This document shows positions 1 through 56,996 of a stretch of DNA of 64,000 bases, in pieces. Below the pieces are notes generated by a model. The model saw only the letters and a list, made by a program, of their open reading frames with translations, searched no databases and had not been told where the DNA came from. Position 1 is the stretch's first letter; each line of letters opens with the position of its first letter. Location: assembly GCF_030384885.1 (NCBI RefSeq), contig NZ_CP128613.1; one strand, 5' to 3'. The stretch is from Escherichia coli (GTDB lineage: Bacteria > Pseudomonadota > Gammaproteobacteria > Enterobacterales > Enterobacteriaceae). Both the position numbers and the translations under genes were made by a program.

Positions 1-507
1 GCGTAGAAGTGTGTTGTCCTTCCAGAAATAGTGGTGTGCCAGTGCAGCCGCAGCGTGCAACCCGATGACAAAATATCCCAGATTCGCCAGCGTCTCATGC
101 CACCACTTTAAGCTATCAACCCGTTCGAAATTGGCCTCTGCTGCATAAGGCATTGTCATACCAAACGCAAACCACGGGTTGCCCCGGTTATACATCATCA
201 CCAAACCAATCACTGGCAGCGCAATAAACAGGAGATAAATCACCAAATGTCCCAAATGTGCCAGTCCCGTCATCATCGGTTTTGGTTTAGGTACAATCGG
301 CGGAGTTGGGTATTTAAGCCTTAACAAAAGACGAACAACCATCAGCACGAGAATTGTGATGCCACAGGAAACATGAATCATGTTGATGAGCGGCCGATCG
401 CTACGTGGGAAGAAACCACGAAACTCCATTGCGCAATACGCTGCGATAACCAGCAAAAAGACCAGCCAGTGAATGCCGATTTGTAACCTTGAATATTTAC
501 TTTCCAT
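1..507 (-). CDS. cybB: cytochrome b561, 3' end runs off the window
   Basis: Minus-strand ATG at 507..505; frame stays open to position 1; translation starts MESKYSRLQIGIHWLVF and reaches ...HHYFWKDNTLLR at the window edge. Confidence 0.75.
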   Translation of the reverse strand, partial: MESKYSRLQIGIHWLVFLLVIAAYCAMEFRGFFPRSDRPLINMIHVSCGITILVLMVVRLLLRLKYPTPPIVPKPKPMMTGLAHLGHLVIYLLFIALPVIGLVMMYNRGNPWFAFGMTMPYAAEANFERVDSLKWWHETLANLGYFVIGLHAAAALAHHYFWKDNTLLR

Positions 508-695
508 AACATTTCCTGCTTTAACATAATTTTCCGTTAACATAACGAGCTTTTCTTAAAATTTCATTAAATATTGTTCACCCGTTTTCAGTACGTTACG
601 TTTCACGGCAAGAATGTAGATTGCCCATCCCGCCATCCTGGTCTAAGCCTGGAAAGGATCAATTTTCATCCGAACGTTCCTGACAGGAGAAGACC

Positions 696-1697
696 ATGAG
701 TAAAGTTGGTATTAACGGTTTTGGTCGTATCGGTCGACTGGTGTTGCGTCGATTACTTGAAGTCAAAAGCAACATAGACATTGTCGCTATTAATGATCTC
801 ACTTCCCCAAAAATTCTCGCCTACCTGCTGAAACATGATTCAAACTACGGACCGTTCCCCTGGAGCGTTGATTTTACGGAAGATTCACTTATCGTTGATG
901 GAAAAAGTATCGCGGTTTACGCCGAAAAAGAGGCTAAAAATATTCCATGGAAAGCGAAAGGCGCAGAAATCATTGTCGAATGTACTGGCTTTTATACCTC
1001 CGCCGAGAAATCGCAGGCGCACCTTGATGCTGGTGCGAAGAAGGTGTTGATTTCCGCCCCTGCCGGTGAAATGAAAACCATCGTTTATAACGTCAATGAC
1101 GACACACTGGATGGCAACGACACCATTGTTTCCGTGGCGTCATGCACCACTAACTGTCTTGCACCGATGGCCAAAGCCTTGCACGACAGTTTCGGAATAG
1201 AAGTCGGCACGATGACGACCATTCATGCCTATACTGGCACCCAGTCACTGGTGGATGGCCCGCGAGGTAAAGATCTACGCGCTTCACGTGCAGCGGCAGA
1301 AAATATCATTCCCCACACTACAGGCGCGGCAAAAGCCATTGGTCTGGTGATCCCAGAACTGAGCGGCAAACTGAAAGGTCATGCGCAACGCGTACCCGTG
1401 AAAACAGGTTCGGTGACTGAACTGGTGTCTATTCTTGGAAAAAAAGTGACTGCCGAAGAGGTGAACAACGCGCTTAAAAACGCGACAAACAATAACGAGT
1501 CATTTGGTTATACCGATGAAGAAATAGTCTCTTCTGATATCATTGGCAGCCATTTCGGGTCGGTGTTTGATGCCACGCAAACCGAAATTACCGCCGTGGG
1601 CGATTTACAACTGGTGAAAACGGTCGCCTGGTATGATAACGAATATGGCTTCGTCACGCAGCTTATTCGCACCCTCGAAAAATTCGCTAAACTCTGA
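696..1697 (+). CDS. gapC: glyceraldehyde-3-phosphate dehydrogenase C, intact 333 aa
   Basis: NAD-binding N-terminus [10 protein letters not shown] and active-site SCTTNCLAP; uninterrupted 333-codon ORF. Confidence 0.9.
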
Positions 1698-1738
1698 CGA
1701 GCAAAGGCGGAGGGAAAAGCCTCCGCCTCTTTCACTCA

Positions 1739-3178
1739 TTACGACTGTAAATAAACCACCTGGGTCTGCAGGTATTCATGCAAGCCATGTTTGCCATCTG
1801 CGCCGCCAATACCGGATTTACGCCATCCGGCGTGGAATCCTTGCATAGCTTCGAAGTTTTCACGGTTGATGTAAGTTTCACCAAACTTCAGCCCTTTAAT
1901 AGCTTTCATCGCGACGTTCAGATTTTGGGTATAGAGTGATGAGGTCAGGCCGTAATCACTGTCATTAGCCATTGCGATAGCCTCTTCCAGCGTGTCAAAT
2001 GCGACCACTGGCAGCACCGGGCCAAAGGTTTCCTCGTGCATAATCGACATTTCCTGACGAACATCCAGCAGCAAAGTCGGCGGATAATAATATCCTTTCC
2101 CCTCAACCGCTTTGCCCCCCAACGCTACCCTCGCCCCCTCTTCGACTGCGCGCGCCACTTTTTGCTCGACCCTTTCCAGCGCCGCGGCGTTAATCAACGG
2201 CCCCATCGCAATGTCGTTGCGTTCAGCGGGGTTACCAAATTGAACCGCCTGCATCGCTTCACCCAGCCGATTGACGAACTGATCATAAATGCCTTTCTGT
2301 ACATAAACACGTTCTGCACAGTTACACACTTGCCCACTATTAATGACGCGTGAATCAACGATGGCTTTGACTGCCAGTTCAAGATCGGCATCGTCCATTA
2401 CGATAGCTGGTGCTTTACCACCCAATTCCAGACACACTTTTGTGATATTTTTTGCTGCAGTCGCCATGATCTTTTCACCTGCAGAGACGCTGCCTGTCAT
2501 ACTGACCATTGCGACCTTTGGGTTACCCGCCAGTTCTTGCCCAACGGTTTCACCACGCCCCAGCACAAGGTTAAACACACCGCGTGGAAGGCCTATTTCA
2601 TCGACAATTTTGGCAAAAGCAATCGCATTGTTTGGCGTAAATTCACTGGGTTTAATGACGATGGTATTACCGGTCAAAAGAGCGGGAGCCATTTTGCGGG
2701 CAATGAGGAAGAACGGGAAGTTCCACGGCAGAATGCCGGTAGTCACGCCAAGCGCACGTTTAAAGAGAAGAATATTTTCTCCTGGACGATCGCTTTGAAT
2801 AATCTCACCTTCGTAACGCCGCGCCCACTCTGCCATGTAATCGATATAATCCGCAGTAAATGCCACCTCAACTTCGGCCAGCTGCTGGATCTTGCCCCCT
2901 TCTTCAACAATCAGCGCACTGATTTCACTGGCGCGTTCGCGGATCCCGGCGGCGATTTTGCGCAACCAACTGGCGCGTTCAATGGCAGGCAATGCTTCCC
3001 ATTCTGGCTGCGCGCGCTCTGCGGCGTCGATTGCTTTGCGAGCATCTTCAGCCTGACCATCGGGAATGCGGGAAATCACCGCCTCTGTTGCGGGGTTAAC
3101 CACATCAATCCATGCGTCTCCACGCCAGGTAACAAACTGTCCATCGATATACATAGGATGTTGAACGGGTACTGACAT
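1739..3178 (-). CDS. aldA: lactaldehyde/glycolaldehyde dehydrogenase (NAD-dependent aldehyde dehydrogenase)
   Basis: 479-aa ORF with aldehyde dehydrogenase hallmarks (ELGGKAP, catalytic Cys region GQVCNCAERVYV). Confidence 0.93.
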   Translation of the reverse strand: MSVPVQHPMYIDGQFVTWRGDAWIDVVNPATEAVISRIPDGQAEDARKAIDAAERAQPEWEALPAIERASWLRKIAAGIRERASEISALIVEEGGKIQQLAEVEVAFTADYIDYMAEWARRYEGEIIQSDRPGENILLFKRALGVTTGILPWNFPFFLIARKMAPALLTGNTIVIKPSEFTPNNAIAFAKIVDEIGLPRGVFNLVLGRGETVGQELAGNPKVAMVSMTGSVSAGEKIMATAAKNITKVCLELGGKAPAIVMDDADLELAVKAIVDSRVINSGQVCNCAERVYVQKGIYDQFVNRLGEAMQAVQFGNPAERNDIAMGPLINAAALERVEQKVARAVEEGARVALGGKAVEGKGYYYPPTLLLDVRQEMSIMHEETFGPVLPVVAFDTLEEAIAMANDSDYGLTSSLYTQNLNVAMKAIKGLKFGETYINRENFEAMQGFHAGWRKSGIGGADGKHGLHEYLQTQVVYLQS

Positions 3179-3371
3179 GGGAGACTCCTGTGATTAATGT
3201 GTGTATTTGGTAAATTATTTGTTAATTAATATCAATCATCATAGAGACAGCATCTTGAAAGGACAAATCTGTGAAGAGCTTCATAAAAAGAAGGGTAAAA
3301 GGAATAAAAGGCAGAAAAAAAAGTAAGGAGTCATGCCCGTTTGCAAACAGTTATTCTCAAACGGGCAATTT

Positions 3372-4172
3372 TCAACGTAGCGAACGACTTTCCATCGCCT
3401 CGATAAGCACAGCATCGTGTTTCAGCGTTTGCCATGCCTGGGTGACTTCTGCAGGAAAATCAACGTGAACGATAAAATCTCGCCCACGGGGACCATAGCC
3501 ATCACTATCATCGCGTAAACGTGGCAGCTCGCCAGTGAGTAGTGAGAGATAACGCTCAACCGGCCATAATCCTTCTAACTGGTTAATAAAGATTACACTG
3601 TCTTCGTTGTTTCCTAGCTGAGGAACGAATCCGGGATAACTTAACCAGCGAGGTGCATCTGGATTGTCCCCGGTCATACGGCGGAACGTCGCCATCGTGC
3701 GCCGCTGCATGGTGGGGTCCTGAACAACGATAGCCGTATGAACTCTTTCTACGGCCTGATTCAATAGCGCGATGCTAAAGCGTGCGTTTTCACCGCAGTT
3801 TGTTGACTGGTCTTCAATCCAGATTTTTTCATGCGGAATGTGCCAGAACTGATGAGCGATATCCGCCAGGATGGTAGCTTCTGCTCTGCCAGTGGTGCGG
3901 ATAGTGTTGTAGTGCGGATGCTGTGCGATGGCGCTATACAAAAAAGTTGTCGAGTGACCGATACCACCACTAATCAGTAGAGGAATTTGCTGATCGCGGG
4001 CAATCTTACATGCCGCATCGATAGTCGGTATAACCGCATTGCCTGCAAGGATCACGCAATCGGCCTGATACGGCACCTCACCGGAGAAATCATCCTGCGC
4101 CAGCCACTGACCGATAACATTTATGGCATCTATGGTTGCCGGCGAAAGCGTCGGAAACGGGGTAATGTTCAT
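3372..4172 (-). CDS. ydcF: DUF218-family protein YdcF
   Basis: 266-aa ORF in the syntenic position between aldA and hrpA. Confidence 0.8.
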
Positions 4173-4443
4173 GGTTCCTCCTTATCGTTCCCTTAAGAAT
4201 ACTGCGTGAGATAATAATGAGAAGCGGAGCACTCTGAAAGGAGGAAGTCGTATTTCCTTAACCGCCACTCCGCAAGCCTGACATATCTTTTAAGGAAATG
4301 CTGTAGATAAACATTATTCATCTTGCAGCAGAGAATTGTATTTTTCTGAATTCCTGAATTTTTGCCCTTACCGTTTTAGAATTAATAAAAAACCCGGCGC
4401 TAAATGCTTACCGGGTTTTAGATTTATCAGGCAAATAGCAGCG

Positions 4444-7400
4444 TTAACCGCTAATCTGCTCCATCGCCTGTAGAATACGCTTATCTGAAATCGGATAAGG
4501 TGTACCGAGTTGTTGGGCAAAATAGCTGACGCGCAACTCCTCTATCATCCAGCGTATCTCTTTCACGTCTTCATCCTCACGACGTGCAGGCGGCAGTTTG
4601 TTGATCCATTGCTGCCACGCCTGCTGGACGTTTTCAACTTTCAGCATCTGAGCACGGTCACGGTGCGGGTCAACCGCCAGTTTTTCCAGACGCTTTTCAA
4701 TCGCCTGCAAATAACGCAGCGTGTCGCCCAGGCGTTTGAAGCCATTACCAGTGACAAAACCGCGATACACCAGCCCACTCATCTGCGCTTTAATGTCAGA
4801 AAGCCCCAGCGCCATGGTCATATCCACCCGCCCTTTCAGGCGTTTGTTGATATTGAACACCGCCGTAAGGATTTGCTCTACCTGCTTCGCAATATCCACC
4901 ACCGTGTCGTTCAGTTCAGCGCGGACTTTTTCATGAAGCGCAGCAAAGCCCTCTTCCGTCCAGACCGGGCCGCCCGCCTCATCAATCAACTTATCAACAC
5001 CGCAGGAGATGCAGTCGTCAATGAGATCCAGCACTTTACCGTACGGGTTAAAGTAGAGACCAAGCTTCGCTTTGTTCGGCAGTTTCTCATGCAGATATTT
5101 AATTGGCGACGGAATATTCAGCAGCAGCAAGCGACGCAAACCACGCCACATAGCCTGCTGTTGTTCCTGCGGGTTATCAAAAAGCTTAATCGCTACGCTG
5201 TCACGCTCATCCACCAGCGCAGGCCAGGCCTTCACTTTGTAGTTGCCACGTTTCTGCTCGTAGTGATCCGGTAAATTACCGAAGCTCCAGATATGTAACC
5301 CGCTTTGCTCAATACCATCATCGGCAACGGCGGAAAGCGTTTCCTGCACTTTGCCTTTCAGGGCGTCTTTCAGATCCTGTAATGAGCGCCCTTCTTTTAG
5401 CTTCTTATTTTTGTCATCCACCACACGGAAGGTGATTTTCAGGTGATCGGGCACCTGATCCCAGTGCCAGTCTTCGCGGTCAACGGTAACGCCGGTCATC
5501 CGCCGTAGCTCGCGCTCAAGGCTGTCGAGCAACGGCAGTTCCAGCGGCGTGACGCGACCTAAAAACGCTTCGGCGTAGTTTGGCGCGGGCACAAAATTAC
5601 GCCGTACCGGTTTCGGCAACGATTTGATTAGAGCAATCACCAGTTCACGGCGCAGGCCGGGGATCTGCCACTCAAACCCGCTTTCCTCAACCTGGTTAAG
5701 TAATGGCAGCGGAATATGCACGGTCACACCGTCAGCATCCGCCCCCGGCTCAAACTGATAGCTTAAACGCAGCTTGAGATTGCCCTGATGCCAGAAGTTC
5801 GGGTAATCCAGCTTGCTGATTTTTTCCGCCCCTTCTTTGATCAACATGCTCTTTTCAAAGTTGAGCAAATCAGGTGTTTCGCGGCTGACTTTTTTCCACC
5901 AACTATCAAAGTGACGTGCAGAGATCACATCATGGCTGATGCGCTGGTCGTAAAACTCAAACAACGTTTCGTCATCCACCAGAATATCGCGGCGACGTGA
6001 TTTGTGTTCCAGTTCTTCCACTTCTGCCCGTAGTTTCAGGTTTTCACGGAAGAATGCGTGACGCGTCTGCCAGTCACCTTCCACCAGCGCGTGGCGAATA
6101 AAAAGTTCACGACACAGCGCCGGATCAATCTGGCTGTAGTTGACCTTACGCGCAGCAACAATCGGCAACCCGTAAACGGTGACTTTTTCAGTTGCCATCA
6201 CCGCGCCCTGCGCCCGTTCCCAGTGCGGTTCGCTGTAGGAGCGTTTAATCAAATGCTGGGCAACTGGCTCTACCCATTCTGGATCGATGCGTGCCGCAAT
6301 GCGCCCCCACAGGCGGCTGGTTTCTACCAGTTCCGCCACCATTGCCCATTTCGGCGGCTTCTTGAATAAACCAGAACCGGGGAAGATGGAGAAACGCGCG
6401 TTACGTGCGCCGGTATATTCCTGTTTATCGGCATCTTTCATCCCGATATGCGAAAGCAAACCGGTCAGTAAGGCGATGTGAATTTCGCGATACTCCGCCG
6501 GTTCGCTGTTAACCGGAATGCCAAGTTCTTTCACCACCTGGCGCAACTGGGTGTAGATGTCCTGCCATTCGCGCACGCGCAGATAGTTAAGGTAATCGGT
6601 ACGGCAAAGGCGACGGAAGGCGTTTGAAGAGAGCGCCTTTTGCTGCTCGCCGAGATAATTCCACAGATTTACAAACGCCAGGAAGTCGGATTCTTTATCG
6701 TGGAAGCGACGATGTTTTTCGTCCGATGCCTGCTGCTTGTCCATTGGCCGCTCACGCGGGTCCTGAATAGAGAGCGCGGAAGTGATAATCATCGCCTCAC
6801 GCACGCAGCCATGTTTCTGCGCTTCCAGCACCATTCGCGCCAGACGAGGATCGACTGGCAGTTGCGAGAGCTGGCGACCGAGCGGCGTCAGTTTATAGGC
6901 GCTGGCCTGTTCATCAGTGGTGATCGCGCCCAGCTCTTCGAGCAGACGCACGCCATCCTGGATATTGCGTTTATCCGGCGCTTCTACAAACGGGAACGCA
7001 GCGATATCGCCCAGCCCCAGCGCGGTCATCTGCAAAATAACCGAGGCCAGGTTGGTACGCAGAATCTCCGGATCGGTAAACTCCGGGCGCGAGAGGAAAT
7101 CGTCTTCGGAATAAAGACGAATGCAGATCCCTTCTGACACACGACCACAGCGGCCTTTACGCTGATTAGCTGAAGCCTGCGAAATGGGCTCAATCGGCAA
7201 ACGCTGCACTTTGGTGCGATAGCTGTAGCGGCTGATACGCGCCGTACCTGGGTCGATAACGTATTTAATCCCCGGCACGGTCAGCGACGTTTCCGCGACG
7301 TTAGTCGCCAGCACAATGCGCCGTCCGCTGTGCGACTGGAAGACGCGGTTCTGCTCGCTGTTCGAAAGCCGTGCATAAAGCGGAAGAATTTCCGTATGGC

Positions 7401-28997: not shown

Positions 28998-31900
28998 ATG
29001 ATTACTATTGACGGTAATGGCGCGGTTGCTTCGGTGGCGTTTCGCACCAGTGAAGTTATCGCCATCTACCCTATTACCCCCAGTTCCACGATGGCAGAAC
29101 AGGCTGATGCATGGGCCGGAAACGGCTTGAAAAACGTTTGGGGAGACACACCACGCGTGGTTGAAATGCAGTCGGAAGCGGGTGCTATCGCTACCGTGCA
29201 TGGTGCTTTGCAAACTGGCGCCCTCTCAACATCGTTTACGTCATCGCAGGGTTTGCTGCTGATGATCCCAACGCTGTACAAACTGGCAGGCGAACTGACG
29301 CCGTTTGTCCTGCATGTTGCGGCTCGTACCGTTGCCACACATGCACTCTCTATTTTTGGCGATCATTCCGACGTCATGGCAGTGCGCCAGACGGGTTGCG
29401 CGATGTTGTGTGCAGCAAACGTCCAGGAGGCGCAAGACTTTGCTCTCATTTCGCACATTGCGACGCTGAAAAGTCGCGTGCCATTTATTCATTTCTTTGA
29501 TGGTTTCCGCACGTCCCACGAGATCAATAAAATTGTCCCGCTGGCCGATGACACTATTCTTGAACTGATGCCGCAGGCAGAAATTGATGCTCATCGCGCC
29601 CGTGCACTCAACCCGGAACATCCGGTGATCCGCGGTACGTCCGCCAATCCTGACACTTATTTCCAGTCTCGCGAAGCCACCAACCCATGGTACAACGCAG
29701 TCTATGACCATGTTGAACAGGCGATGAATGATTTCGCTGCCGCGACAGGTCGCCATTATCAGCCCTTTGAGTATTACGGGCATCCACAAGCGGAACGGGT
29801 GATTATCCTGATGGGCTCTGCCATCGGCACCTGTGAAGAAGTGGTTGATGAATTGCTGACCCGAGGCGAAAAAGTGGGCGTGCTAAAAGTTCGTCTGTAC
29901 CGCCCCTTCTCCGCCAAACACTTGCTACAAGCTCTGCCGGGATCCGTACGCAGCGTGGCGGTAGTGGACAGAACCAAAGAACCGGGTGCCCAGGCAGAAC
30001 CGCTCTATCTGGATGTGATGACCACACTGGCTGAAGCCTTTAATAATGGCGAGCGCGAAACCCTGCCCCGTGTCATCGGCGGGCGCTATGGTCTTTCATC
30101 CAAAGAATTTGGCCCGGACTGTGTTCTGGCAGTATTTGCCGAACTCACTGCAGCTAAACCGAAAGCGCGCTTTACGGTTGGTATTTACGATGATGTGACC
30201 AATCTGTCACTGCCGTTGCCGGAAAACACCCTGCCAAACTCGGCGAAACTGGAAGCCTTGTTTTATGGTCTTGGTAGTGATGGCAGCGTTTCCGCGACCA
30301 AAAACAATATCAAGATTATCGGTAATTCCACGCCGTGGTACGCACAGGGCTATTTTGTTTACGACTCCAAAAAGGCGGGCGGCCTGACGGTTTCTCACCT
30401 TCGCGTGAGCGAACAGCCGATTCGTTCCGCTTATCTCATTTCCCAGGCTGATTTTGTTGGCTGCCACCAGTTGCAGTTTATCGATAAATATCAGATGGCT
30501 GAACGTTTAAAACCTGGCGGCATTTTCCTGCTCAACACGCCGTACAGCGCAGATGAAGTATGGTCGCGCTTGCCGCAGGAAGTTCAGGCCGTGTTAAACC
30601 AGAAAAAAGCGCGCTTCTATGTGATTAACGCGGCGAAAATCGCCCGTGAATGTGGCCTGGCGGCCCGTATTAATACCGTCATGCAGATGGCTTTTTTCCA
30701 TCTGACGCAAATTCTGCCTGGCGACAGCGCCCTGGCCGAATTGCAGGGCGCGATTGCCAAAAGCTACAGCAGCAAAGGCCAGGATCTGGTGGAACGCAAC
30801 TGGCAGGCTCTGGCACTGGCGCGTGAATCCGTAGAAGAAGTTCCGCTACAGCCGGTTAATCCGCACAGCGCCAATCGACCGCCTGTGGTTTCCGATGCTG
30901 CTCCTGATTTCGTGAAAACCGTTACCGCTGCGATGCTCGCCGGACTTGGCGATGCTCTCCCCGTTTCGGCGCTGCCGCCAGACGGCACCTGGCCGATGGG
31001 TACCACACGCTGGGAAAAACGCAATATTGCCGAAGAGATCCCCATCTGGAAAGAGGAACTCTGTACTCAATGTAACCACTGCGTCGCCGCTTGCCCACAC
31101 TCAGCTATTCGCGCCAAAGTGGTGCCGCCTGAAGCAATGGAAAATGCCCCTGCCAGCCTGCATTCGCTGGATGTAAAATCGCGTGATATGCGCGGGCAGA
31201 AATATGTCTTGCAGGTAGCTCCGGAAGATTGCACCGGCTGTAACCTGTGCGTCGAAGTTTGCCCGGCGAAAGACCGTCAGGATCCAGAGATCAAAGCTAT
31301 CAATATGATGTCACGTCTGGAACATGTAGAAGAAGAGAAAATCAATTACGACTTCTTCCTAAATTTACCAGAAATCGATCGCAGCAAACTGGAACGTATT
31401 GATATTCGTACATCGCAACTGATTACACCGCTGTTTGAATATTCAGGTGCTTGCTCTGGTTGTGGCGAGACGCCGTATATTAAATTGCTGACTCAGCTCT
31501 ATGGCGATCGGATGTTGATCGCTAACGCTACGGGTTGTTCTTCAATTTATGGTGGTAACCTGCCCTCCACACCATATACCACCGATGCCAACGGTCGTGG
31601 ACCGGCATGGGCGAACTCGCTGTTTGAAGATAACGCCGAATTTGGCCTTGGTTTCCGCCTGACGGTCGATCAACACCGTGTCCGCGTGCTGCGTCTGCTG
31701 GATCAATTTGCCGATAAAATCCCGGCTAAATTACTAACTGCGTTGAAATCAGACGCCACGCCAGAGGTTCGTCGTGAACAGGTTGCAGCTTTACGCCAGC
31801 AACTCAACGATGTTGCTGAAGCACATGAACTGCTGCGTGATGCAGATGCACTGGTGGAAAAATCAATCTGGCTGATTGGTGGCGATGGCTGGGCTTACGA

Positions 31901-32522
31901 TATTGGCTTTGGCGGTCTGGATCATGTATTGAGTCTGACGGAAAACGTCAACATTCTGGTGCTGGATACGCAATGCTATTCCAATACCGGTGGTCAGGCG
32001 TCAAAAGCCACGCCGCTTGGCGCGGTGACTAAGTTTGGCGAGCACGGCAAACGTAAAGCGCGTAAAGATCTTGGCGTCAGTATGATGATGTACGGTCATG
32101 TTTATGTGGCGCAGATTTCTCTCGGCGCGCAGCTCAACCAGACGGTGAAAGCGATTCAGGAAGCGGAAGCGTATCCGGGGCCATCGCTGATCATCGCTTA
32201 TAGCCCGTGTGAAGAGCATGGTTACGATCTGGCACTCAGTCACGACCAGATGCGCCAACTCACTGCTACCGGCTTCTGGCCGCTATATCGCTTTGATCCG
32301 CGTCGTGCCGATGAAGGCAAACTGCCGCTGGCGCTGGATTCACGCCCGCCGTCAGAAGCACTGGAAGAAACGTTACTTCACGAGCAGCGTTTCCGTCGTC
32401 TGAATTCGCAGCAGCCAGAAGTGGCAGAACAGTTATGGAAAGATGCCGCAGCTGATTTGCAAAAACGCTATGACTTCCTGGCACAAATGGCCGGAAAAGC
32501 GGAAAAAAGCAACACCGATTAA
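28998..32522 (+). CDS. ydbK: pyruvate:flavodoxin/ferredoxin oxidoreductase
   Basis: 1174-aa ORF; two 4Fe-4S ferredoxin motifs CTQCNHCVAACP and CTGCNLCVEVCP; thiamine-diphosphate domain region GGDGW. Confidence 0.95.
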   Translation: MITIDGNGAVASVAFRTSEVIAIYPITPSSTMAEQADAWAGNGLKNVWGDTPRVVEMQSEAGAIATVHGALQTGALSTSFTSSQGLLLMIPTLYKLAGELTPFVLHVAARTVATHALSIFGDHSDVMAVRQTGCAMLCAANVQEAQDFALISHIATLKSRVPFIHFFDGFRTSHEINKIVPLADDTILELMPQAEIDAHRARALNPEHPVIRGTSANPDTYFQSREATNPWYNAVYDHVEQAMNDFAAATGRHYQPFEYYGHPQAERVIILMGSAIGTCEEVVDELLTRGEKVGVLKVRLYRPFSAKHLLQALPGSVRSVAVVDRTKEPGAQAEPLYLDVMTTLAEAFNNGERETLPRVIGGRYGLSSKEFGPDCVLAVFAELTAAKPKARFTVGIYDDVTNLSLPLPENTLPNSAKLEALFYGLGSDGSVSATKNNIKIIGNSTPWYAQGYFVYDSKKAGGLTVSHLRVSEQPIRSAYLISQADFVGCHQLQFIDKYQMAERLKPGGIFLLNTPYSADEVWSRLPQEVQAVLNQKKARFYVINAAKIARECGLAARINTVMQMAFFHLTQILPGDSALAELQGAIAKSYSSKGQDLVERNWQALALARESVEEVPLQPVNPHSANRPPVVSDAAPDFVKTVTAAMLAGLGDALPVSALPPDGTWPMGTTRWEKRNIAEEIPIWKEELCTQCNHCVAACPHSAIRAKVVPPEAMENAPASLHSLDVKSRDMRGQKYVLQVAPEDCTGCNLCVEVCPAKDRQDPEIKAINMMSRLEHVEEEKINYDFFLNLPEIDRSKLERIDIRTSQLITPLFEYSGACSGCGETPYIKLLTQLYGDRMLIANATGCSSIYGGNLPSTPYTTDANGRGPAWANSLFEDNAEFGLGFRLTVDQHRVRVLRLLDQFADKIPAKLLTALKSDATPEVRREQVAALRQQLNDVAEAHELLRDADALVEKSIWLIGGDGWAYDIGFGGLDHVLSLTENVNILVLDTQCYSNTGGQASKATPLGAVTKFGEHGKRKARKDLGVSMMMYGHVYVAQISLGAQLNQTVKAIQEAEAYPGPSLIIAYSPCEEHGYDLALSHDQMRQLTATGFWPLYRFDPRRADEGKLPLALDSRPPSEALEETLLHEQRFRRLNSQQPEVAEQLWKDAAADLQKRYDFLAQMAGKAEKSNTD

Positions 32523-32550
32523 ATGCTCTGGATAAGGATTATCCAATTCT

Positions 32551-32660
32551 AAAAAAAAGCCCGGACGACTGTTCGGGCTTGTCTTTTTATATGTTGGAAA
32601 ATCAGTGGCAATGCAATGGCCCAACAGAAAATAAAATCTGTGACAATAAAGGCATATAAC
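32551..32660 (-). ncRNA. micC: MicC sRNA (Hfq-dependent repressor of ompC)
   Basis: Reverse complement of this interval matches the recalled MicC sequence GTTATATGCCTTTATTGTCACAG...GCCCGAACAGTCGTCCGGGCTTTTTTTT, including its intrinsic terminator. Confidence 0.85.
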
Positions 32661-32887
32661 CCGCGCAGAATAACGTATAGCAAATTAAAAGTATAATTTT
32701 TATTTTGTATGTATTACCTTCAATACATTCACCATACTTATTATCATTTCATAAGAATTATTTGATTAAGATTTAACTTAAGGCGTAACAAATGATATTT
32801 ATCGGCTAACGGAACTTCTCCTTTAGGATGTTTTTACTCCCCGAAGCCGGGGTAAAAGGCAAATAAAATAACTAAAGGATTTATTCA

Positions 32888-34021
32888 ATGAAAAGCAAAG
32901 CACTGGCACTCTTAATTCCGTCCCTGCTTGCAGCAGGTGCTGCACATGCAGCCGAAGTTTATAATAAAGACGGCAACAAATTAGATCTGTATGGCAAAGT
33001 TGATGGCCTGCATTATTTTTCTGATAATTCAGCGAAAGATGGCGACCAGAGCTATGCGCGTCTGGGTTTTAAAGGCGAAACCCAAATTAACGATCAACTT
33101 ACTGGCTACGGTCAATGGGAATACAATATTCAGGCAAACAACACTGAATCTTCAAAAAACCAGTCATGGACCCGTCTGGCATTTGCCGGACTGAAATTTG
33201 CAGATTACGGTTCTTTCGATTACGGACGTAATTATGGCGTAATGTACGACATCGAAGGCTGGACCGATATGCTGCCTGAATTTGGCGGTGACTCTTATAC
33301 CAATGCAGACAACTTTATGACTGGTCGTGCCAATGGCGTCGCGACTTATCGTAACACTGATTTCTTCGGTCTGGTAAATGGTCTGAACTTCGCGGTGCAG
33401 TATCAAGGTAACAACGAAGGAGCCAGTAATGGTCAGGAAGGCACCAACAACGGACGTGATGTTCGCCATGAAAACGGTGACGGCTGGGGTCTTTCCACAA
33501 CATATGATTTAGGCATGGGCTTTAGCGCTGGTGCGGCATACACCTCTTCTGACCGCACCAATGACCAGGTTAACCATACTGCGGCGGGTGGTGATAAAGC
33601 AGACGCGTGGACTGCTGGGCTAAAATACGATGCTAACAATATTTACCTGGCAACCATGTATTCAGAAACGCGTAATATGACCCCGTTTGGCGACAGCGAT
33701 TATGCTGTTGCAAACAAAACCCAGAACTTTGAAGTCACTGCACAGTACCAGTTTGATTTTGGTCTGCGTCCGGCAGTCTCTTTCCTGATGTCTAAAGGCC
33801 GTGACCTGCACGCTGCCGGTGGTGCAGACAACCCGGCAGGTGTTGATGATAAAGATCTGGTAAAATACGCCGATGTTGGCGCGACTTACTATTTCAATAA
33901 AAATATGTCCACTTACGTTGACTATAAAATCAACCTGTTGGATGAAGATGACAGCTTCTACGCTGCCAACGGCATCTCTACCGATGATATTGTCGCTTTA
34001 GGTCTGGTTTATCAGTTCTAA
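32888..34021 (+). CDS. ompN: outer-membrane porin OmpN
   Basis: 377-aa ORF with signal peptide and porin C-terminus ...GLVYQF. Confidence 0.92.
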
Positions 34022-34026
34022 ATCCT

Positions 34027-34054
34027 CCTGCCCGCTGTTATGGCGGGCTTTTTC
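34027..34054 (+). terminator. ompN intrinsic terminator
   Basis: Hairpin gcccgctgttatggcgggc followed by TTTTT. Confidence 0.7.
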
Positions 34055-34080
34055 TGCTTATTCTTCCTCCTTTGATCTAA

Positions 34081-34596
<516 letters not shown>

Positions 34597-34602
34597 CACT
34601 AA

Positions 34603-34629
34603 CGCCCGCACATTGCTGCGGGCTTTTTG
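34603..34629 (+). terminator. uspF intrinsic terminator
   Basis: Hairpin cccgcacattgctgcggg followed by CTTTTTG. Confidence 0.7.
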
Positions 34630-34771
34630 ATTCATTTCGCAAATGTGCTGACATTTTCCCCTCTAATCCGTACCATACACGCCACAGTTTTTATATCAGA
34701 TTTCTTATGCTGGGCGTTCCGGCATGACGCATACTCTTCTGATGCCATATAACGAATTGAGTCGCTTTTAA

Positions 34772-35707
34772 ATGTCGCAAAATCAAGAAATTAGTAAGAA
34801 AGAACAATACAATCTGAACAAATTACAAAAACGTCTGCGTCGTAACGTGGGCGAAGCCATTGCTGACTTCAATATGATTGAAGAAGGCGATCGCATCATG
34901 GTTTGCCTCTCCGGGGGTAAAGACAGCTATACCATGCTGGAGATTCTGCGCAATTTGCAGCAAAGCGCGCCAATCAATTTTTCGCTGGTGGCTGTTAACC
35001 TCGATCAAAAGCAACCGGGCTTCCCGGAACACGTTCTGCCCGAGTATCTTGAAAAGCTGGGCATTGAGTACAAGATTGTGGAAGAGAACACTTACGGTAT
35101 CGTGAAAGAGAAGATTCCGGAGGGCAAAACCACTTGCTCACTGTGTTCTCGTCTTCGTCGCGGAATTCTTTACCGTACCGCAACGGAACTGGGAGCGACG
35201 AAGATCGCGCTGGGTCACCATCGTGACGATATCCTGCAAACGTTGTTCTTAAATATGTTCTACGGCGGCAAGATGAAAGGTATGCCTCCGAAACTGATGA
35301 GCGATGATGGCAAACATATTGTGATTCGTCCGCTGGCCTACTGCCGCGAGAAAGATATTCAGCGCTTTGCCGATGCAAAAGCGTTCCCGATTATTCCGTG
35401 CAACCTGTGCGGTTCACAACCTAACCTGCAACGTCAGGTGATTGCTGACATGTTGCGTGACTGGGATAAACGTTATCCGGGGCGTATCGAGACGATGTTC
35501 AGCGCGATGCAGAATGTGGTGCCGTCGCATCTGTGCGATACCAACCTGTTCGATTTCAAAGGCATTACCCACGGTTCTGAAGTGGTTAACGGGGGTGATC
35601 TGGCGTTTGATCGCGAAGAGATCCCTCTACAACCGGCGGGTTGGCAGCCTGAAGAAGATGAAAATCAGTTGGATGAGTTACGACTGAATGTGGTTGAAGT
35701 GAAATAA
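34772..35707 (+). CDS. ttcA: tRNA 2-thiocytidine(32) synthetase TtcA, prophage-free allele
   Basis: 311-aa ORF with PP-loop SGGKDS and Cys motifs; the N-terminus [14 protein letters not shown] differs from the recalled K-12 Rac-lysogen form MQENQQITKKEQYN. Confidence 0.9.
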
Positions 35708-50676: not shown

Positions 50677-52290
50677 TCAATGTTTCACAATATACATAGT
50701 CCGGCTATACGCCACATCTTCCGGGTTATTAATGGGATAACCTTTCAGCCACGGCTTGATTAATCGTCCATTGGTATATTGATAAATTGGTGCAATCGGT
50801 GCTTGCTCCATGAGGATTTTTTCTGCCGCGTTGTAATCGGCATTACGCGCTTTAACGGTATTTTCCGTCGATGCCTGGGCCAAAACTTTGTCGTAGGCCG
50901 GGTTGTTAAAACGTGAAATGTTCCCTGAATGCGTTGACGTTAATAATGTCAGGAAGGTGGAGGGTTCATTATAATCCCCCACCCACGAGGCGCGGATAAC
51001 ATCAAAATTACCTGTATTACGACTATCGATATAGGTTTTCCATTCCTGATTTTGCAGTTTGACATCTACACCAAGGTTCTTTTTCCACATCGATGCCACA
51101 GCAATCGCAATTTTTTGATGGTTTTCTGAAGTATTATACAAAAGCGTCAGCTTCAGCGGTTTTTGCGGACCATAACCGGCTGCGCTCAACAAAGTTTTTG
51201 CCTGCGCATTCAGTTCTTCCTGACTCATTTGTTCAAACGGCGAAGGCTCCGGCGTGAATCCGGCAGTAACATCTGGCGTAAAATGCCACGCTGGTTTTTC
51301 GCCCGTCCCCAACACTTTTTCGGTCATCAGGCGGCGATCTATCGTCATACTTAATGCCAGACGAACGCGCTGATCTGCCGCCGGCCCTTTTTGCGTGTTA
51401 AACGCATAATAATAGGTCCCGAGCTGCGGCGGTGTATAAACCTGCCCCGGAATATCCTTCAACAGCTTCTGATACATATTTTTGGGGAAGGATTCGGTGA
51501 TATCAATATCCCCCGCGAGATAACGCTTAGTGGCTGCGGATTCCTGATTAATTGGCAGGAAGGTCACTTTTTGCAACACCGTTTTGGCGTTATCCCAATA
51601 ATGAGTATTTGGCACCACGACCAGTTTTTCATTGACTACACGCTCTTTAAGAACATAAGCGCCATTGCCGACCAGATTTCCGGGTTTCGTCCACTCTTTC
51701 CCGCTTTCTACGTTAGCTTTTTGCACCGGGAAGAAGGCAAAATTGGCTGTTAAATTCACAAACCACGGCAACGGTTTATCAAGCTGGATTTTCAAAGTAC
51801 GGGCATCAACCGCGGTGACGCCTAGCTGATCAGGCGTAGCTTTACCATCAATAATCGCCTGTGCGTTGTTGATTCCCGCCAGCGCGGCAAACCAGGCAAA
51901 CGGCGACAACGTTTTTGGGTCAACCAGACGTTGCCAGCTGTAGACAAAATCCTGTGCCGTTACCGGTGTGCCATCCGCCCATTTTGCGTTATCGCGCAGG
52001 GTGAAAGTCCAGATACGGTTGTCATTACTTTTCCACTGAGTCGCAACGCCGGGGACAATCTCCCCTTTCTCGTTCTGATTCACCAGTCCTTCAAAAAGAT
52101 CGCGAATGACCTGAATCTCTGGCAGACCCACGGCTTTAGCGGGATCCAGCGACGCAGGCTCATCTTTAATATGGCGCACCAGCTCCTGCTTCTCTGCCAG
52201 TACTGTGCCGCTCGGAACTTCTGCAGCATACGAAAGAGAAATGCTGCTGACCAACAGCGCACAACACGTGACTGAAACAGAGTGCTTCAT
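50677..52290 (-). CDS. mppA: periplasmic murein tripeptide-binding protein
   Basis: 537-aa ORF with signal peptide; family-5 solute-binding protein, OppA paralogue. Confidence 0.93.
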   Translation of the reverse strand: MKHSVSVTCCALLVSSISLSYAAEVPSGTVLAEKQELVRHIKDEPASLDPAKAVGLPEIQVIRDLFEGLVNQNEKGEIVPGVATQWKSNDNRIWTFTLRDNAKWADGTPVTAQDFVYSWQRLVDPKTLSPFAWFAALAGINNAQAIIDGKATPDQLGVTAVDARTLKIQLDKPLPWFVNLTANFAFFPVQKANVESGKEWTKPGNLVGNGAYVLKERVVNEKLVVVPNTHYWDNAKTVLQKVTFLPINQESAATKRYLAGDIDITESFPKNMYQKLLKDIPGQVYTPPQLGTYYYAFNTQKGPAADQRVRLALSMTIDRRLMTEKVLGTGEKPAWHFTPDVTAGFTPEPSPFEQMSQEELNAQAKTLLSAAGYGPQKPLKLTLLYNTSENHQKIAIAVASMWKKNLGVDVKLQNQEWKTYIDSRNTGNFDVIRASWVGDYNEPSTFLTLLTSTHSGNISRFNNPAYDKVLAQASTENTVKARNADYNAAEKILMEQAPIAPIYQYTNGRLIKPWLKGYPINNPEDVAYSRTMYIVKH

Positions 52291-52472
52291 AAGTTACCCT
52301 CAAACCTGCGTTAATAATCATGCGTAATTATTTGTTTCGCCTTAAAGAAATGCAAACAACTTCCGGCAAAAAAGTGATACAAGATCGATAACATAGCGTT
52401 GAAGAAAAGGATTTGATAATCCGCAAAATTTGCACAACACTGCCTGTAATACTTCCTGAACCAGAGACGATC

Positions 52473-53201
52473 ATGACCGTAACTCGCCCACGCGCCGAAC
52501 GCGGCGCATTTCCGCCCGGTACAGAACATTACGGACGTTCATTATTGGGCGCGCCTTTGATCTGGTTTCCGGCCCCAGCCGCCAGTCACGAAAGTGGTTT
52601 GATTCTGGCTGGCACCCACGGTGATGAAAACTCTTCGGTCGTGACCCTCTCCTGTGCTCTGCGGACATTGACACCGTCTTTGCGCCGCCATCATGTGGTG
52701 CTGTGTGTGAATCCTGACGGCTGCCAGTTAGGGTTACGGGCCAATGCTAATGGCGTGGATTTAAATAGAAACTTTCCGGCAGCAAACTGGAAGGAAGGTG
52801 AAACGGTTTATCGCTGGAACAGCGCCGCTGAAGAACGTGATGTCGTTTTACTGACAGGTGACAAACCTGGCTCCGAACCTGAAACTCAGGCGCTGTGCCA
52901 GCTTATACATCGCATTCAACCTGCCTGGGTGGTCTCATTCCACGATCCACTGGCCTGTATTGAAGACCCCAGACACAGCGAATTAGGTGAATGGCTGGCC
53001 CAGGCGTTTGAATTGCCACTGGTCACCAGCGTCGGTTATGAAACGCCTGGCTCTTTCGGCAGTTGGTGTGCGGATCTCAACCTGCATTGCATCACCGCAG
53101 AGTTTCCGCCCATCTCCTCCGACGAAGCCAGCGAAAAATACCTCTTTGCGATGGCTAACTTGCTGCGCTGGCATCCTAAAGATGCAATGCGCCCGTCGTG
53201 A
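52473..53201 (+). CDS. mpaA: murein peptide amidase A (M14 zinc carboxypeptidase family)
   Basis: 242-aa ORF starting MTVTRPRAERG; contains HGDE (AGTHGDENSS). Confidence 0.88.
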   Translation: MTVTRPRAERGAFPPGTEHYGRSLLGAPLIWFPAPAASHESGLILAGTHGDENSSVVTLSCALRTLTPSLRRHHVVLCVNPDGCQLGLRANANGVDLNRNFPAANWKEGETVYRWNSAAEERDVVLLTGDKPGSEPETQALCQLIHRIQPAWVVSFHDPLACIEDPRHSELGEWLAQAFELPLVTSVGYETPGSFGSWCADLNLHCITAEFPPISSDEASEKYLFAMANLLRWHPKDAMRPS

Positions 53202-54907: not shown

Positions 54908-56959
54908 ATGACTATTATGGATGATAAACAAATTACGGTCTGGCTTAAACACAATTGCTGTTCAACGGACATTCCTGCCATTGCCGAGGCACTAACGAAC
55001 CATGCAGAATGGCTTTTAGAGCTAGCGCCAGATCCTATTGAACAAGGTTGTTCATGTTTACCGCCGACAGCTGCAGCCGGTATTTTTCTTGGCGCAGCGG
55101 CGATGGTTCACTGCGGCGAGGCTAGTGGTGCAGAAACCTGGCTCGAAGCAGCCATTACTGATTACCATTTCTTTAATCCAAATGGATATAGTTCATGGAG
55201 AGGCAGTACGCCTGTTTTTACAGCATTATCGCGTTACCCGGCATTAAGAATGGTGTTATTTAACGCCGCTTGCGCAATGGAAGACTGGAATAAAGCATCC
55301 GCTGTTCTTGAATCGCTTTTCCATGCCAGCGATGTAACGGAAGATAACCCTGTCGCCCCCAATTTTACCCCTTATGCGCTGAAAGCGTTTATCGCGGATT
55401 ACCACCCGTTAGGGCCTGCTTATTATGATGAAACCTGGTTGCTGGCAAAACAAGCGTGGTTAATTAATGCGGGCGTTCTGGATGAGCGAACCTGTAATAC
55501 CTGGAAGCAATATACCCGCCATTTGCGCCATTTGATCCATAATGCACAGTTTTCCGATGCGATCTCTTTTGTACGCAGTAAAAAAGAACCATTAAATCAT
55601 ATCCATACCTACTCAGACTTTTATCTCTATGCGATTGGTTTATTTTCTTCTACTGATCAGCTAAGTGAAGCGCTAACCTGGGTAAAACAATTAATCCGCA
55701 ACAATGATGGTCATTTCCATGATCTTTTCGTTTCAACTGGCGCAAAGCGCCGAATAAAGCCTGAACTTAGTACCTTGCTGAATAATCTCTTGTACAGCGC
55801 AGAGTTTCAGGCGTTGCAGGATAAATATCTCACCGTCGGACATGATGTTGTGCATTCTGGTCCCTTCATGTCACTTTATGAAAAGGTTCTTGGCGGTAAG
55901 TCCCGAAAGCGCTGCGCGATTAGTCGAAAATTAATCTCACCCGGCGAAGCGGTTTATGAATATCGTCAGCTGGATAGTGTGGAATATATTGCAGCGAAAG
56001 CGGCCTTTCAGACATCTGAGCTAAATAATATCGCCCACCGGCATCATAATGATAGTTATCAGTGGCATGAATTTGCCGTCCAATGGCCTCGTCGGGGTTC
56101 ACTTTCTCACCCAGATATTGCCCGTTATTTGTTTGAGCGCCAGGAAGGAAAATGCTTTGATGCCGCAGAGTTTATACAACTGATTGCGGAACCGTTTGTC
56201 TTTCCGATGCGTTTCATATGGGTTGCCGGGTTGTCCTTTGAATTACATCAGTATCCGGATGCCTATTTCGTAAATGACAATATGGCGGGTGAATTTGTTA
56301 ATCTCTGCTGGATGGCTATGAAATGCGGACATGCTGGCGACATTTTCAAACAACTGGCCCACGAGCCGCATGACGTTGCTGACCCTATTTACGCCATGCT
56401 CGCCACGTTTGACCGCGCTGATTGCCGTAGCGCCGCCGCCGCGCACTTTGGACAACCGGAACTACCGGAAATAATGGCACTGGCTTTCAGTTCGAGGTTA
56501 TCGCTCGACAGCGTCCTTACCATCGCTGAGTTTGGTAAAAATCAGCCGCGATTTTCACATGCGCTAGCAACGGCCCTCCTGCGTTACAACCTGCACATCT
56601 ACTCAAACTATATGCCGCAGGTTAACTGGTACCTTCAGGGGCTGGAACACTATGCTTTGGCAAAAGGCGGTCAACTTTTAAATTTCTTTGTGCATATTCC
56701 AGAACAAATTCCCGTTCTGGCGACCATGCTGGAACATGGCGTATTAGTGCGTGGGATCGGTGAAGGTGCCTATGATGGTTATGATAATTCAGCAAATTCA
56801 TTTCATCATGCCGCCGTGATGCACTGCCTCACGCACGCGCCGGAAAAAGTCCGCTACTGGATGGAAACACCCTGGATTCAGAACTATTTAGTGAATGCGC
56901 CGCTGCGTCAAACGGCGCGCCATGTGGAAGCCTGGCATAAAAAGTTTGGCATCAAATGA
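54908..56959 (+). CDS. uncharacterised ~680-aa protein encoded between tpx and tyrR; no family recognised
   Basis: Uninterrupted frame 54863..56959 (TTG at 54863; likely ATG at 54908 or 54917, with GGAG at 54902). No signal peptide, TM segment or Walker A seen; His/Cys-rich patches (HNCCSTD, GCSCLPP, RHLRHLIHN, HRHHNDSYQWHEF, KCGHAGD). Confidence 0.7.
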   Translation: MTIMDDKQITVWLKHNCCSTDIPAIAEALTNHAEWLLELAPDPIEQGCSCLPPTAAAGIFLGAAAMVHCGEASGAETWLEAAITDYHFFNPNGYSSWRGSTPVFTALSRYPALRMVLFNAACAMEDWNKASAVLESLFHASDVTEDNPVAPNFTPYALKAFIADYHPLGPAYYDETWLLAKQAWLINAGVLDERTCNTWKQYTRHLRHLIHNAQFSDAISFVRSKKEPLNHIHTYSDFYLYAIGLFSSTDQLSEALTWVKQLIRNNDGHFHDLFVSTGAKRRIKPELSTLLNNLLYSAEFQALQDKYLTVGHDVVHSGPFMSLYEKVLGGKSRKRCAISRKLISPGEAVYEYRQLDSVEYIAAKAAFQTSELNNIAHRHHNDSYQWHEFAVQWPRRGSLSHPDIARYLFERQEGKCFDAAEFIQLIAEPFVFPMRFIWVAGLSFELHQYPDAYFVNDNMAGEFVNLCWMAMKCGHAGDIFKQLAHEPHDVADPIYAMLATFDRADCRSAAAAHFGQPELPEIMALAFSSRLSLDSVLTIAEFGKNQPRFSHALATALLRYNLHIYSNYMPQVNWYLQGLEHYALAKGGQLLNFFVHIPEQIPVLATMLEHGVLVRGIGEGAYDGYDNSANSFHHAAVMHCLTHAPEKVRYWMETPWIQNYLVNAPLRQTARHVEAWHKKFGIK

Positions 56960-56967
56960 ACGTTGCC

Positions 56968-56990
56968 GCTGCGCCTGAACGGCGCAGCCA
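56968..56990. terminator. bidirectional hairpin between the convergent unknown ORF and tyrR
   Basis: gctgcgcc tgaac ggcgcagc perfect inverted repeat. Confidence 0.5.
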
Positions 56991-56996
56991 GCACAA

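Follow-up and report, generated by a model that had tools for sequence, protein, structure and literature searches.

Does an attachment site that holds no prophage represent an ancestral state? The question is raised by the interval between uspF and ttcA in a 64,000-nucleotide stretch of Escherichia coli DNA (contig NZ_CP128613.1; the whole stretch is referred to below as the window), which corresponds to the place taken by the cryptic prophage Rac in E. coli K-12. An original prediction, made from the letters of the window alone, read this interval as an unoccupied Rac attachment site at the 5' end of ttcA and the allele as ancestral and prophage-free. Comparison with K-12, with complete E. 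coli genomes and with other Enterobacterales bears out the first part: the locus is an unoccupied Rac-family attachment site at the 5' end of ttcA and carries the TtcA' form of the gene. The second part holds in so far as attB is unoccupied, but the spacer contains a relic of an older Rac-family integrase gene. The explanation that we consider likely, taken as a whole, is that the spacer is a decayed attL arm in which a ttcA promoter embedded in former integrase codons has been retained.

The unoccupied Rac attachment site

The site and the genes that flank it comprise the following features.

34162–34596, plus strand: uspF coding sequence (stop codon TGA at 34594–34596), from the annotation of the closest genome; NCBIfam UspF equivalog, 303 bits (cut-off 166)
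34604–34628, plus strand: intrinsic-terminator-like hairpin of uspF (34604–34623; 7-pair stem with 6 G-C pairs, loop of 6) followed by the T-run TTTTT, from a terminator scan
34772–35707, plus strand: ttcA, tRNA 2-thiocytidine(32) synthetase, TtcA' allele of the unoccupied site, from the listing of open reading frames (ORFs); NCBIfam TtcA, 513 bits (cut-off 272)
34779–34821, no strand assigned: imperfect homology common to both K-12 attachment arms, given by the 43-bp overlap of the K-12 flank alignments
34796–34821, no strand assigned: 26-bp attachment (att) core AAGAAAGAACAATACAATCTGAACAA, in single copy, from an exact-match search and an anchored three-way comparison

In K-12 MG1655 (NC_000913.3), the annotated 'cryptic prophage Rac' (intR...ynaE, ynaM) takes up 23,060 bp between ttcA and ttcC, a 17-codon pseudogene adjoining uspF, in agreement with the approximately 23 kb from intR to ynaE that the original prediction had placed between K-12 ttcA and uspF. 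In the window, uspF and ttcA are separated by exactly 175 bp, and the ORF listing contains no integrase or phage gene between them; both this distance and a terminator at 34603–34629 had been noticed beforehand, and the hairpin with its TTTTT agrees with the latter. When the 35-kb K-12 locus (L001) was aligned with the window by megablast, its positions 1–6942 matched 41721–34779 and its positions 29960–35001 matched 34821–29782, the two flank blocks meeting in the 43-bp overlap with nothing between them. DNA from the interior of Rac had no match in the whole 64-kb window (blastn, word size 11). In the three-way comparison, the window corresponds as far as the core to the bacterial arm of attR in K-12, and it passes seamlessly, with one core, into the bacterial arm of K-12 attL. 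Set against the K-12 attL/attR pair, the left arm of the window is arranged as the uspF–ttcC arm, including the relic described in the next section, the right arm equals K-12 ttcA from the core on, and the 23-kb prophage between the arms is absent.

The core can be written as AAGAAAGAACAATACAA[C/T]CTGAACAA, with T at 34813 in the window and C in both K-12 attL and attR, a synonymous difference in Asn14. The K-12 cores at L001 6900 and 29960 mark the ends of the annotated Rac feature (L001 6900–29959), and the same arrangement is found in phage Rac-SA53, which has an annotated 26-bp attP, intR and a surrogate of the ttcA 5' end. A putative site for integration host factor (IHF), TAANNNNTTGATW on the minus strand at 34781–34793, was read from the sequence by its match to the consensus quoted in PMC8407004. 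The K-12 gene order is kept around the site, with nifJ/ydbK and ompN on one side and dbpA and zntB on the other, and the small RNAs MicC, FnrS and McaS are also found in their K-12 order.

At the protein level, TtcA of the window differs from K-12 TtcA at residues 2, 3, 6 and 8, in the phage-borne part, and by I98V and G290C. The four N-terminal differences, written from the window to K-12, are S2Q, Q3E, E6Q and S8T, and the N-terminus of the window protein is that encoded by the K-12 ttcC remnant (alignment and anchored comparison). The K-12 record contains the MQENQQITKK start that the original prediction had given for TtcA of the lysogen. The Rac-lysogen type, in which an intR-type integrase lies upstream of ttcA and the N-terminus is of the MQENQQITKK type, was not encountered in the window; the alignment to K-12 attL and attR, which had been proposed as a check, returned the attR arm joined to the attL arm and the TtcA' N-terminus.

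An empty Rac site with the TtcA' allele is ordinary and already published. Among 5426 complete E. coli genomes, uspF and ttcA are contiguous in 2488, and an integrase–ttcA junction is present in 2909 (54% occupied). According to the passages on this subject in Liu et al. (2015, Sci Rep 5:16074; PMC4632033), excision of Rac alters four N-terminal residues of TtcA, and strains without rac have the TtcA' N-terminus, which is termed the ancient copy. The N-terminal differences found in the window are the TtcA/TtcA' differences of those passages, and the gene and the 26-bp core are also the same, the window having in addition the synonymous T at 34813. The passages of that paper on these topics mention no promoter of ttcA and no relic of an integrase in the spacer; the word 'promoter' is used there only for flhDC. 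In the corresponding part of PMC11014345, only Q6E and T8S are reported after Rac excision, as opposed to the four residues of Liu et al.; all four differences are present in the window. For the strain, the absence of Rac and the TtcA' form are a matter of bookkeeping only, predicting that recET, ralR/ralA and racR are absent at the locus, and the site is a free landing place for Rac-family phages.

A second class of occupied site is seen in E. coli CFT073 (L002; NZ_CP058222.1, 2735452–2737689), where a degraded remnant of 2.3 kb lies between uspF and ttcA. The remnant contains a pseudogene for a metal ABC permease, a fragment of DUF1627 and an integrase fragment of 231 bp that is annotated as a pseudogene, and its breakpoint is equivalent to about 34668 of the window. 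The integrase fragment is found directly upstream of ttcA, together with a lysogen-type N-terminus and without a functional prophage. This degraded remnant explains why CFT073 is listed by Liu et al. as an exception (lysogen-type TtcA, no rac at ttcA). In contrast to the approximately 2.3 kb kept in CFT073, the window keeps only about 75 bp, with the TtcA' N-terminus.

An integrase relic in the uspF–ttcA spacer

One genome per species was scanned for ttcA codons 10–21, which yielded at least 120 Enterobacterales loci (L006–L125). Weak integrase matches turned up in spacers that have uspF as the immediate upstream neighbour. The spacer of the window was compared with these loci and with IntR of K-12 Rac, and the following feature was identified.

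34641–34715, plus strand (the same as ttcA): relic of a Rac-family tyrosine-integrase gene with an NPYHTRH box, not intact, from tblastn, blastn and a hidden Markov model (HMM) of the integrase family

The relic, which begins approximately 10 nt 3' of the uspF terminator, translates to KCADIFPSNPYHTRHSFYIRFLMLG and was aligned by tblastn with IntR residues 345–369, KRAGIRRRNPYHTRHTFACWLLTAG, at 26.9 bits with 13/25 identities. Dinucleotide shuffling of the spacer (500 shuffles; mean 15.2, maximum 23.9 bits) never yielded so high a score. In nucleotide comparisons, positions 45–95 of the spacer are 76–86% identical to integrase genes located upstream of ttcA in dozens of species (blastn), and the integrase-family HMM matched nearly every species at about 341–374, in the forward frame and 40–120 nt before the ATG. 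The matched motif NPYHTRH[T/S]F, which we take to resemble the conserved His-x-x-Arg region of tyrosine recombinases, argues for an integrase-gene origin. These alignments show that the segment derives from an integrase gene, of which about 25 recognisable codons are left; an intact integrase ORF was not found.

The same relic, with 86 nt from the motif to the ATG, is present in E. whittamii, in Escherichia sp. E1V33 and in seven Citrobacter loci (L006, L009, L054, L085, L087, L092 and L102; 87 nt in L085), and the Escherichia and Citrobacter spacers with the orthologous relic show 84–86% spacer identity. It is also found in the attR arm of K-12 (L001 30009–30140; NC_000913.3 approximately 1435008–1435139, minus strand). 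Its occurrence in Escherichia, in Citrobacter and in the K-12 attR arm therefore makes the relic older than K-12 Rac. Remnants of Rac attL or attR in this interval had been named in the original prediction as the observation that would speak against it, and the relic is in spirit such a remnant; it does not come from K-12 Rac, however, because the K-12 attR arm carries the same relic.

The rest of the spacer points in the same direction. The segment 34727–34771 resembles the int–ttcA spacer of elements with a full-length integrase in Pseudescherichia vulneris and Hafnia, and the last 45 or so nucleotides before the ATG, together with the first codons, resemble the full-length-integrase junction of Pseudescherichia vulneris, which encodes MSQNQEVNK. 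The interval from about 34640 to the core is, on these comparisons, most likely an old attL arm with an internal deletion, left by a Rac-family element older than Rac of K-12. From their position, the MSQNQEIS codons of the window may be of older phage origin as well. Loci with UspF directly upstream (E. whittamii, Escherichia sp. E1V33 and several Citrobacter) have the N-terminus MSQNQ[DE]ISK, and those with an IntR-like sequence directly upstream mostly have MQ[EDQ]NQ....

Across the at least 120 loci, ttcA is as a rule directly preceded by an integrase gene or fragment in Enterobacteriaceae, Erwiniaceae, Yersiniaceae, Pectobacteriaceae, Hafniaceae and Budviciaceae. Among the matches listed, Proteus, Providencia, Moellerella and Xenorhabdus have no such gene or fragment, and their TtcA N-termini are 4–5 residues shorter. 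In Klebsiella pneumoniae MGH 78578, orthologues of intR and xisR adjoin ttcA according to a published ortholog table.

A candidate promoter within the integrase codons

Within the relic and downstream of it, the following features were assigned.

34648–34653, plus strand: -35-like CTGACA of the relic promoter, from a promoter scan; equivalent to CTGGTA at -36 to -31 of the K-12 ttcA transcription start site (TSS)
34671–34676, plus strand: -10-like TACCAT, the former Tyr-His codons of the integrase box, from a promoter scan; equivalent to -13 to -8 of the K-12 TSS
34684–34771, plus strand: predicted ttcA TSS (A at 34684) with an 88-nt 5' untranslated region, placed by homology with K-12 TSS 1412160 (minus strand)

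The arrangement CTGACA–17 nt–TACCAT matches the sigma-70 consensus at 9 of 12 positions; 3 sites of this kind were found in the region, where 2.4 would be expected. Codon usage in the motif is strongly biased: in 94 motif sequences, Pro is encoded by CCG in nearly all, Tyr by TAC in 90 and the first His by CAT in 92 and never by CAC, whereas the next His, used as a control, is encoded by CAT in 51 and by CAC in 33. In 14 non-redundant open integrase genes, third positions are fixed at synonymous sites in 8 of 110 codons, and these fixed positions are located solely at -44, -41, -35, -29, -17, -14, -11 and -8. When 32 non-redundant short relics were compared with the intact consensus, identity outside -44 to +8 was at background (about 0.25–0.35), and it rose to 0.75–1.0 within that interval, with 0.78–1.0 over -36 to -29 and 0.91–1.0 over -19 to -6. 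Such comparative data show the element to be constrained at the DNA level beyond the needs of coding. With relaxed matches counted, the element is present in about 99 of 120 species loci among the matches listed, the loci without it being chiefly those of Morganellaceae, which have shorter TtcA N-termini.

From the codon and promoter pattern, the K-12 start was predicted beforehand at about -212 relative to the ATG of ttcA, close to 1412160 on the minus strand. In the SMRT-Cappable-seq study of Yan et al. (2018; PMC6131387), Supplementary Data 2, column 2 of which gives the operon TSS, reports operon b1344 with a TSS at 1412160 on the reverse strand. This position falls 8 nt past the last base of TACCAT, inside codon 359 of the 411 codons of intR, and the embedding of the promoter in intR would explain why the 212-nt ttcA leader of K-12 starts inside that gene. 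The leader predicted for the window, starting in the relic, is 88 nt long, as compared with the 212 nt of K-12. On the strength of this correspondence, the relic is probably an active ttcA promoter in the window strain. The copy of the relic located upstream of ttcC in K-12 faces ynaM and ynaE at the right end of Rac, and its TSS is predicted at 1435097.

Two other assignments of the element were rejected. The pentamer TGGCA was considered as a sigma-54 element, and its GG lies at -34/-33 instead of -24, with no GC at -12. The possibility that a host promoter had been copied into int by the phage was discarded as well, the motif overlapped by the promoter resembling the conserved His-x-x-Arg region of tyrosine recombinases. 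The supplements available for Salmonella SL1344 were searched for a matching TSS, and no match was found.

Alternative explanations and implications

The closest complete genome to the window is that of E. coli 2013C-4282 (NZ_CP027579.1), with 100% identity over 25 kb around the site and 99.81% over 64 kb (119 mismatches and one gap). Six of the mismatches lie in the first 50 kb, and almost all are found beyond 55 kb; the source of the window is a close relative or another assembly of 2013C-4282, possibly with a recombined tract at 55000–64000. Identity falls to 98.9% for the second-ranked genome and to about 97% for K-12. Rac probes were joined to an 801-bp anchor from the window, and the number of places matched in the record of NZ_CP027579.1 was counted.

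Anchor alone: 1 place
Anchor with intR and recE: 1 place
Anchor with trkG: 2 places
Anchor with kilR: 2 places
Anchor with the five probes intR, recE, kilR, racR and trkG: 3 places

These counts indicate one kilR-like and one trkG-like sequence elsewhere on the 2013C-4282 chromosome; the intR, recE and racR probes had no match on that chromosome by the same chimeric-query counts. The earlier statement that Rac-encoded functions are missing thus stands for the locus, from which the Rac genes are absent, and has to be narrowed elsewhere, since the kilR and trkG probes match other places in the closest genome. The inclusion of rnlAB among the Rac systems was mistaken, as the Rac features annotated in NC_000913.3 include neither rnlA nor rnlB.

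Several other differences from K-12 or from most E. coli were noted in the window. Between tpx and tyrR, at 54917–56959 (plus strand), the window has a gene for a 'hypothetical protein' of 680 aa, with a GC content of 47% against 51–52% in its neighbours; no PADLOC, NCBIfam or Pfam family matched it. It is present in 30 of 5426 complete E. coli genomes, and elsewhere the tpx–tyrR gap measures about 214 bp. An intact gene for a 1845-aa autotransporter is annotated at 17395–22932 (minus strand), at the position of ydbA, which in K-12 is presumably a pseudogene disrupted by an insertion sequence. At 50677–53201, mppA directly adjoins mpaA; in K-12, the additional genes ymjC, ycjY and pgrR lie between them.

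One alternative to a retained attL relic is the simple reading that the allele is ancestral and was never lysogenised, so that the spacer would be ordinary bacterial DNA with a native ttcA promoter and its likeness to an integrase would be due to chance or irrelevant. The name 'ancient copy' used in the consulted passages of Liu et al. (PMC4632033) agrees with it. The site is moreover seamless and free of phage genes, no Pfam integrase domain is found, and outgroup Escherichia and Citrobacter have the same uspF–ttcA adjacency and MSQNQ[DE]ISK. We nevertheless hold this reading to be improbable, as the IntR match lies above all 500 shuffles and is collinear, in frame and in attL orientation, and as the same integrase positions recur in about 100 species among the matches listed. 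The resemblance of NPYHTRH[T/S]F to the conserved His-x-x-Arg region of tyrosine recombinases also speaks against a chance likeness. Alternatively, Rac or a similar phage may once have been present at ttcA in this lineage, and its precise excision would have restored attB. Occupation of 54% of E. coli genomes, the kilR- and trkG-like DNA elsewhere in the closest genome and the precise excision of Rac with restoration of TtcA', described in the relevant parts of PMC4632033 and PMC11014345, are compatible with such a loss. Precise excision is, however, traceless, and sequence cannot separate it from a site that was never occupied. The close relatives among the matches listed (98.3–98.9% identical over 25 kb) all have contiguous uspF–ttcA, and the T at 34813, as opposed to C in both K-12 arms, indicates that the site did not come from a K-12-type lysogen; secondary loss consequently appears unlikely.

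A different function for the element itself can also be proposed, namely that of an accessory site for attP/attL recombination (arm-type integrase, Xis or IHF), kept in the relics by chance or because decay is recent. Its distance from the core, at most about 250 bp on the int side, is one at which arm sites of lambdoid att sites can lie; fixed synonymous sites indicate a function at the DNA level without saying which. This proposal is nonetheless doubtful: the conserved blocks are placed like -35 and -10 hexamers, 17 nt apart, a primary transcript of K-12 starts 8 nt past the last base of TACCAT, and more than 30 independent decayed copies, at variable distances of 26–124 nt from the core, have retained the element although a role in recombination would be useless there.

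A retained integrase-embedded promoter in turn has to be set against several observations that weigh against it. The hexamers are moderate, with 4/6 matches for the -10 and, for the -35, 5/6 in the window and 4/6 in K-12. The TSS predicted at 1435097 for the K-12 copy of the relic was not found in the SMRT-Cappable-seq tables consulted. Kim et al. (2012) reported weak starts of K-12 ttcA at -111 (8 reads) and -114 (15 reads) instead of -212; at least one of the two data sets is therefore incomplete, or ttcA has two promoters. The -111/-114 region of K-12 contains no fixed synonymous sites and is not retained in the spacer of the window. A Pfam search with the 51-aa relic frame gave no match even at E≤10, PF00589 included, for which the shortness of the fragment relative to a domain model would account. 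Kosakonia, Yokenella and Phytobacter have MSQ-type N-termini and no detectable relic, which weighs against a phage origin of the first codons. Detection bias also plays a part, since the motif by which the relic was recognised is the one best conserved in integrases.

With these points weighed, an unoccupied Rac-family site whose spacer is a decayed attL arm with a retained promoter remains the explanation to which we give good, though not full, credence. According to the mechanism proposed here, Rac-family integrase genes would contain a sigma-70-type promoter within the codons for V-K-R-A-G-I-R-R-R-N-P-Y-H, pointing out of the element into ttcA. Integration at the 5' end would sever ttcA from its prior promoter and first codons, and the phage would bring replacements for both, that is, a 5' coding end and a promoter. 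During decay of the prophage, deletions would strip all but a promoter piece of about 50 bp, which is proposed to be kept because ttcA expression depends on it; in the window, this piece would start ttcA transcription at about 34684. By extension, the evidence leans towards the view that in most Enterobacterales the ttcA promoter, and possibly the first eight codons, are a domesticated integrase fragment, the only ttcA promoter left after cycles of integration and decay.

A limited search of the open-access literature joining ttcA, integrase, promoter and prophage found no prior description of the embedded promoter or of the relic. The integrase-relic promoter may be regarded as a modestly novel variant of a known principle, by which phages repair the genes they integrate into. 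As at ttcA, e14 and phage 21 at icd and the phages of tRNA genes duplicate the displaced part of the gene, which stays functional, and excision of gene-integrating phages can change a few residues (reviewed in PMC6379469). Phages at icd and at tRNA genes, however, replace the 3' end and need no promoter, whereas Rac-family elements at ttcA replace the 5' end, so that a promoter must also be supplied; it would lie in the integrase frame and outlive the prophage.

If this explanation holds, it shows a route by which a phage can target the start of an expressed gene and still leave that gene active, through a promoter that overlaps essential integrase codons. It would also mean that an attB which seems untouched can be a scar left by previous integrations, and that the terms 'ancestral' and 'prophage-free' should be used with care. 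The embedded promoter may further provide a handle on dual coding and on the co-dependence of host and phage.

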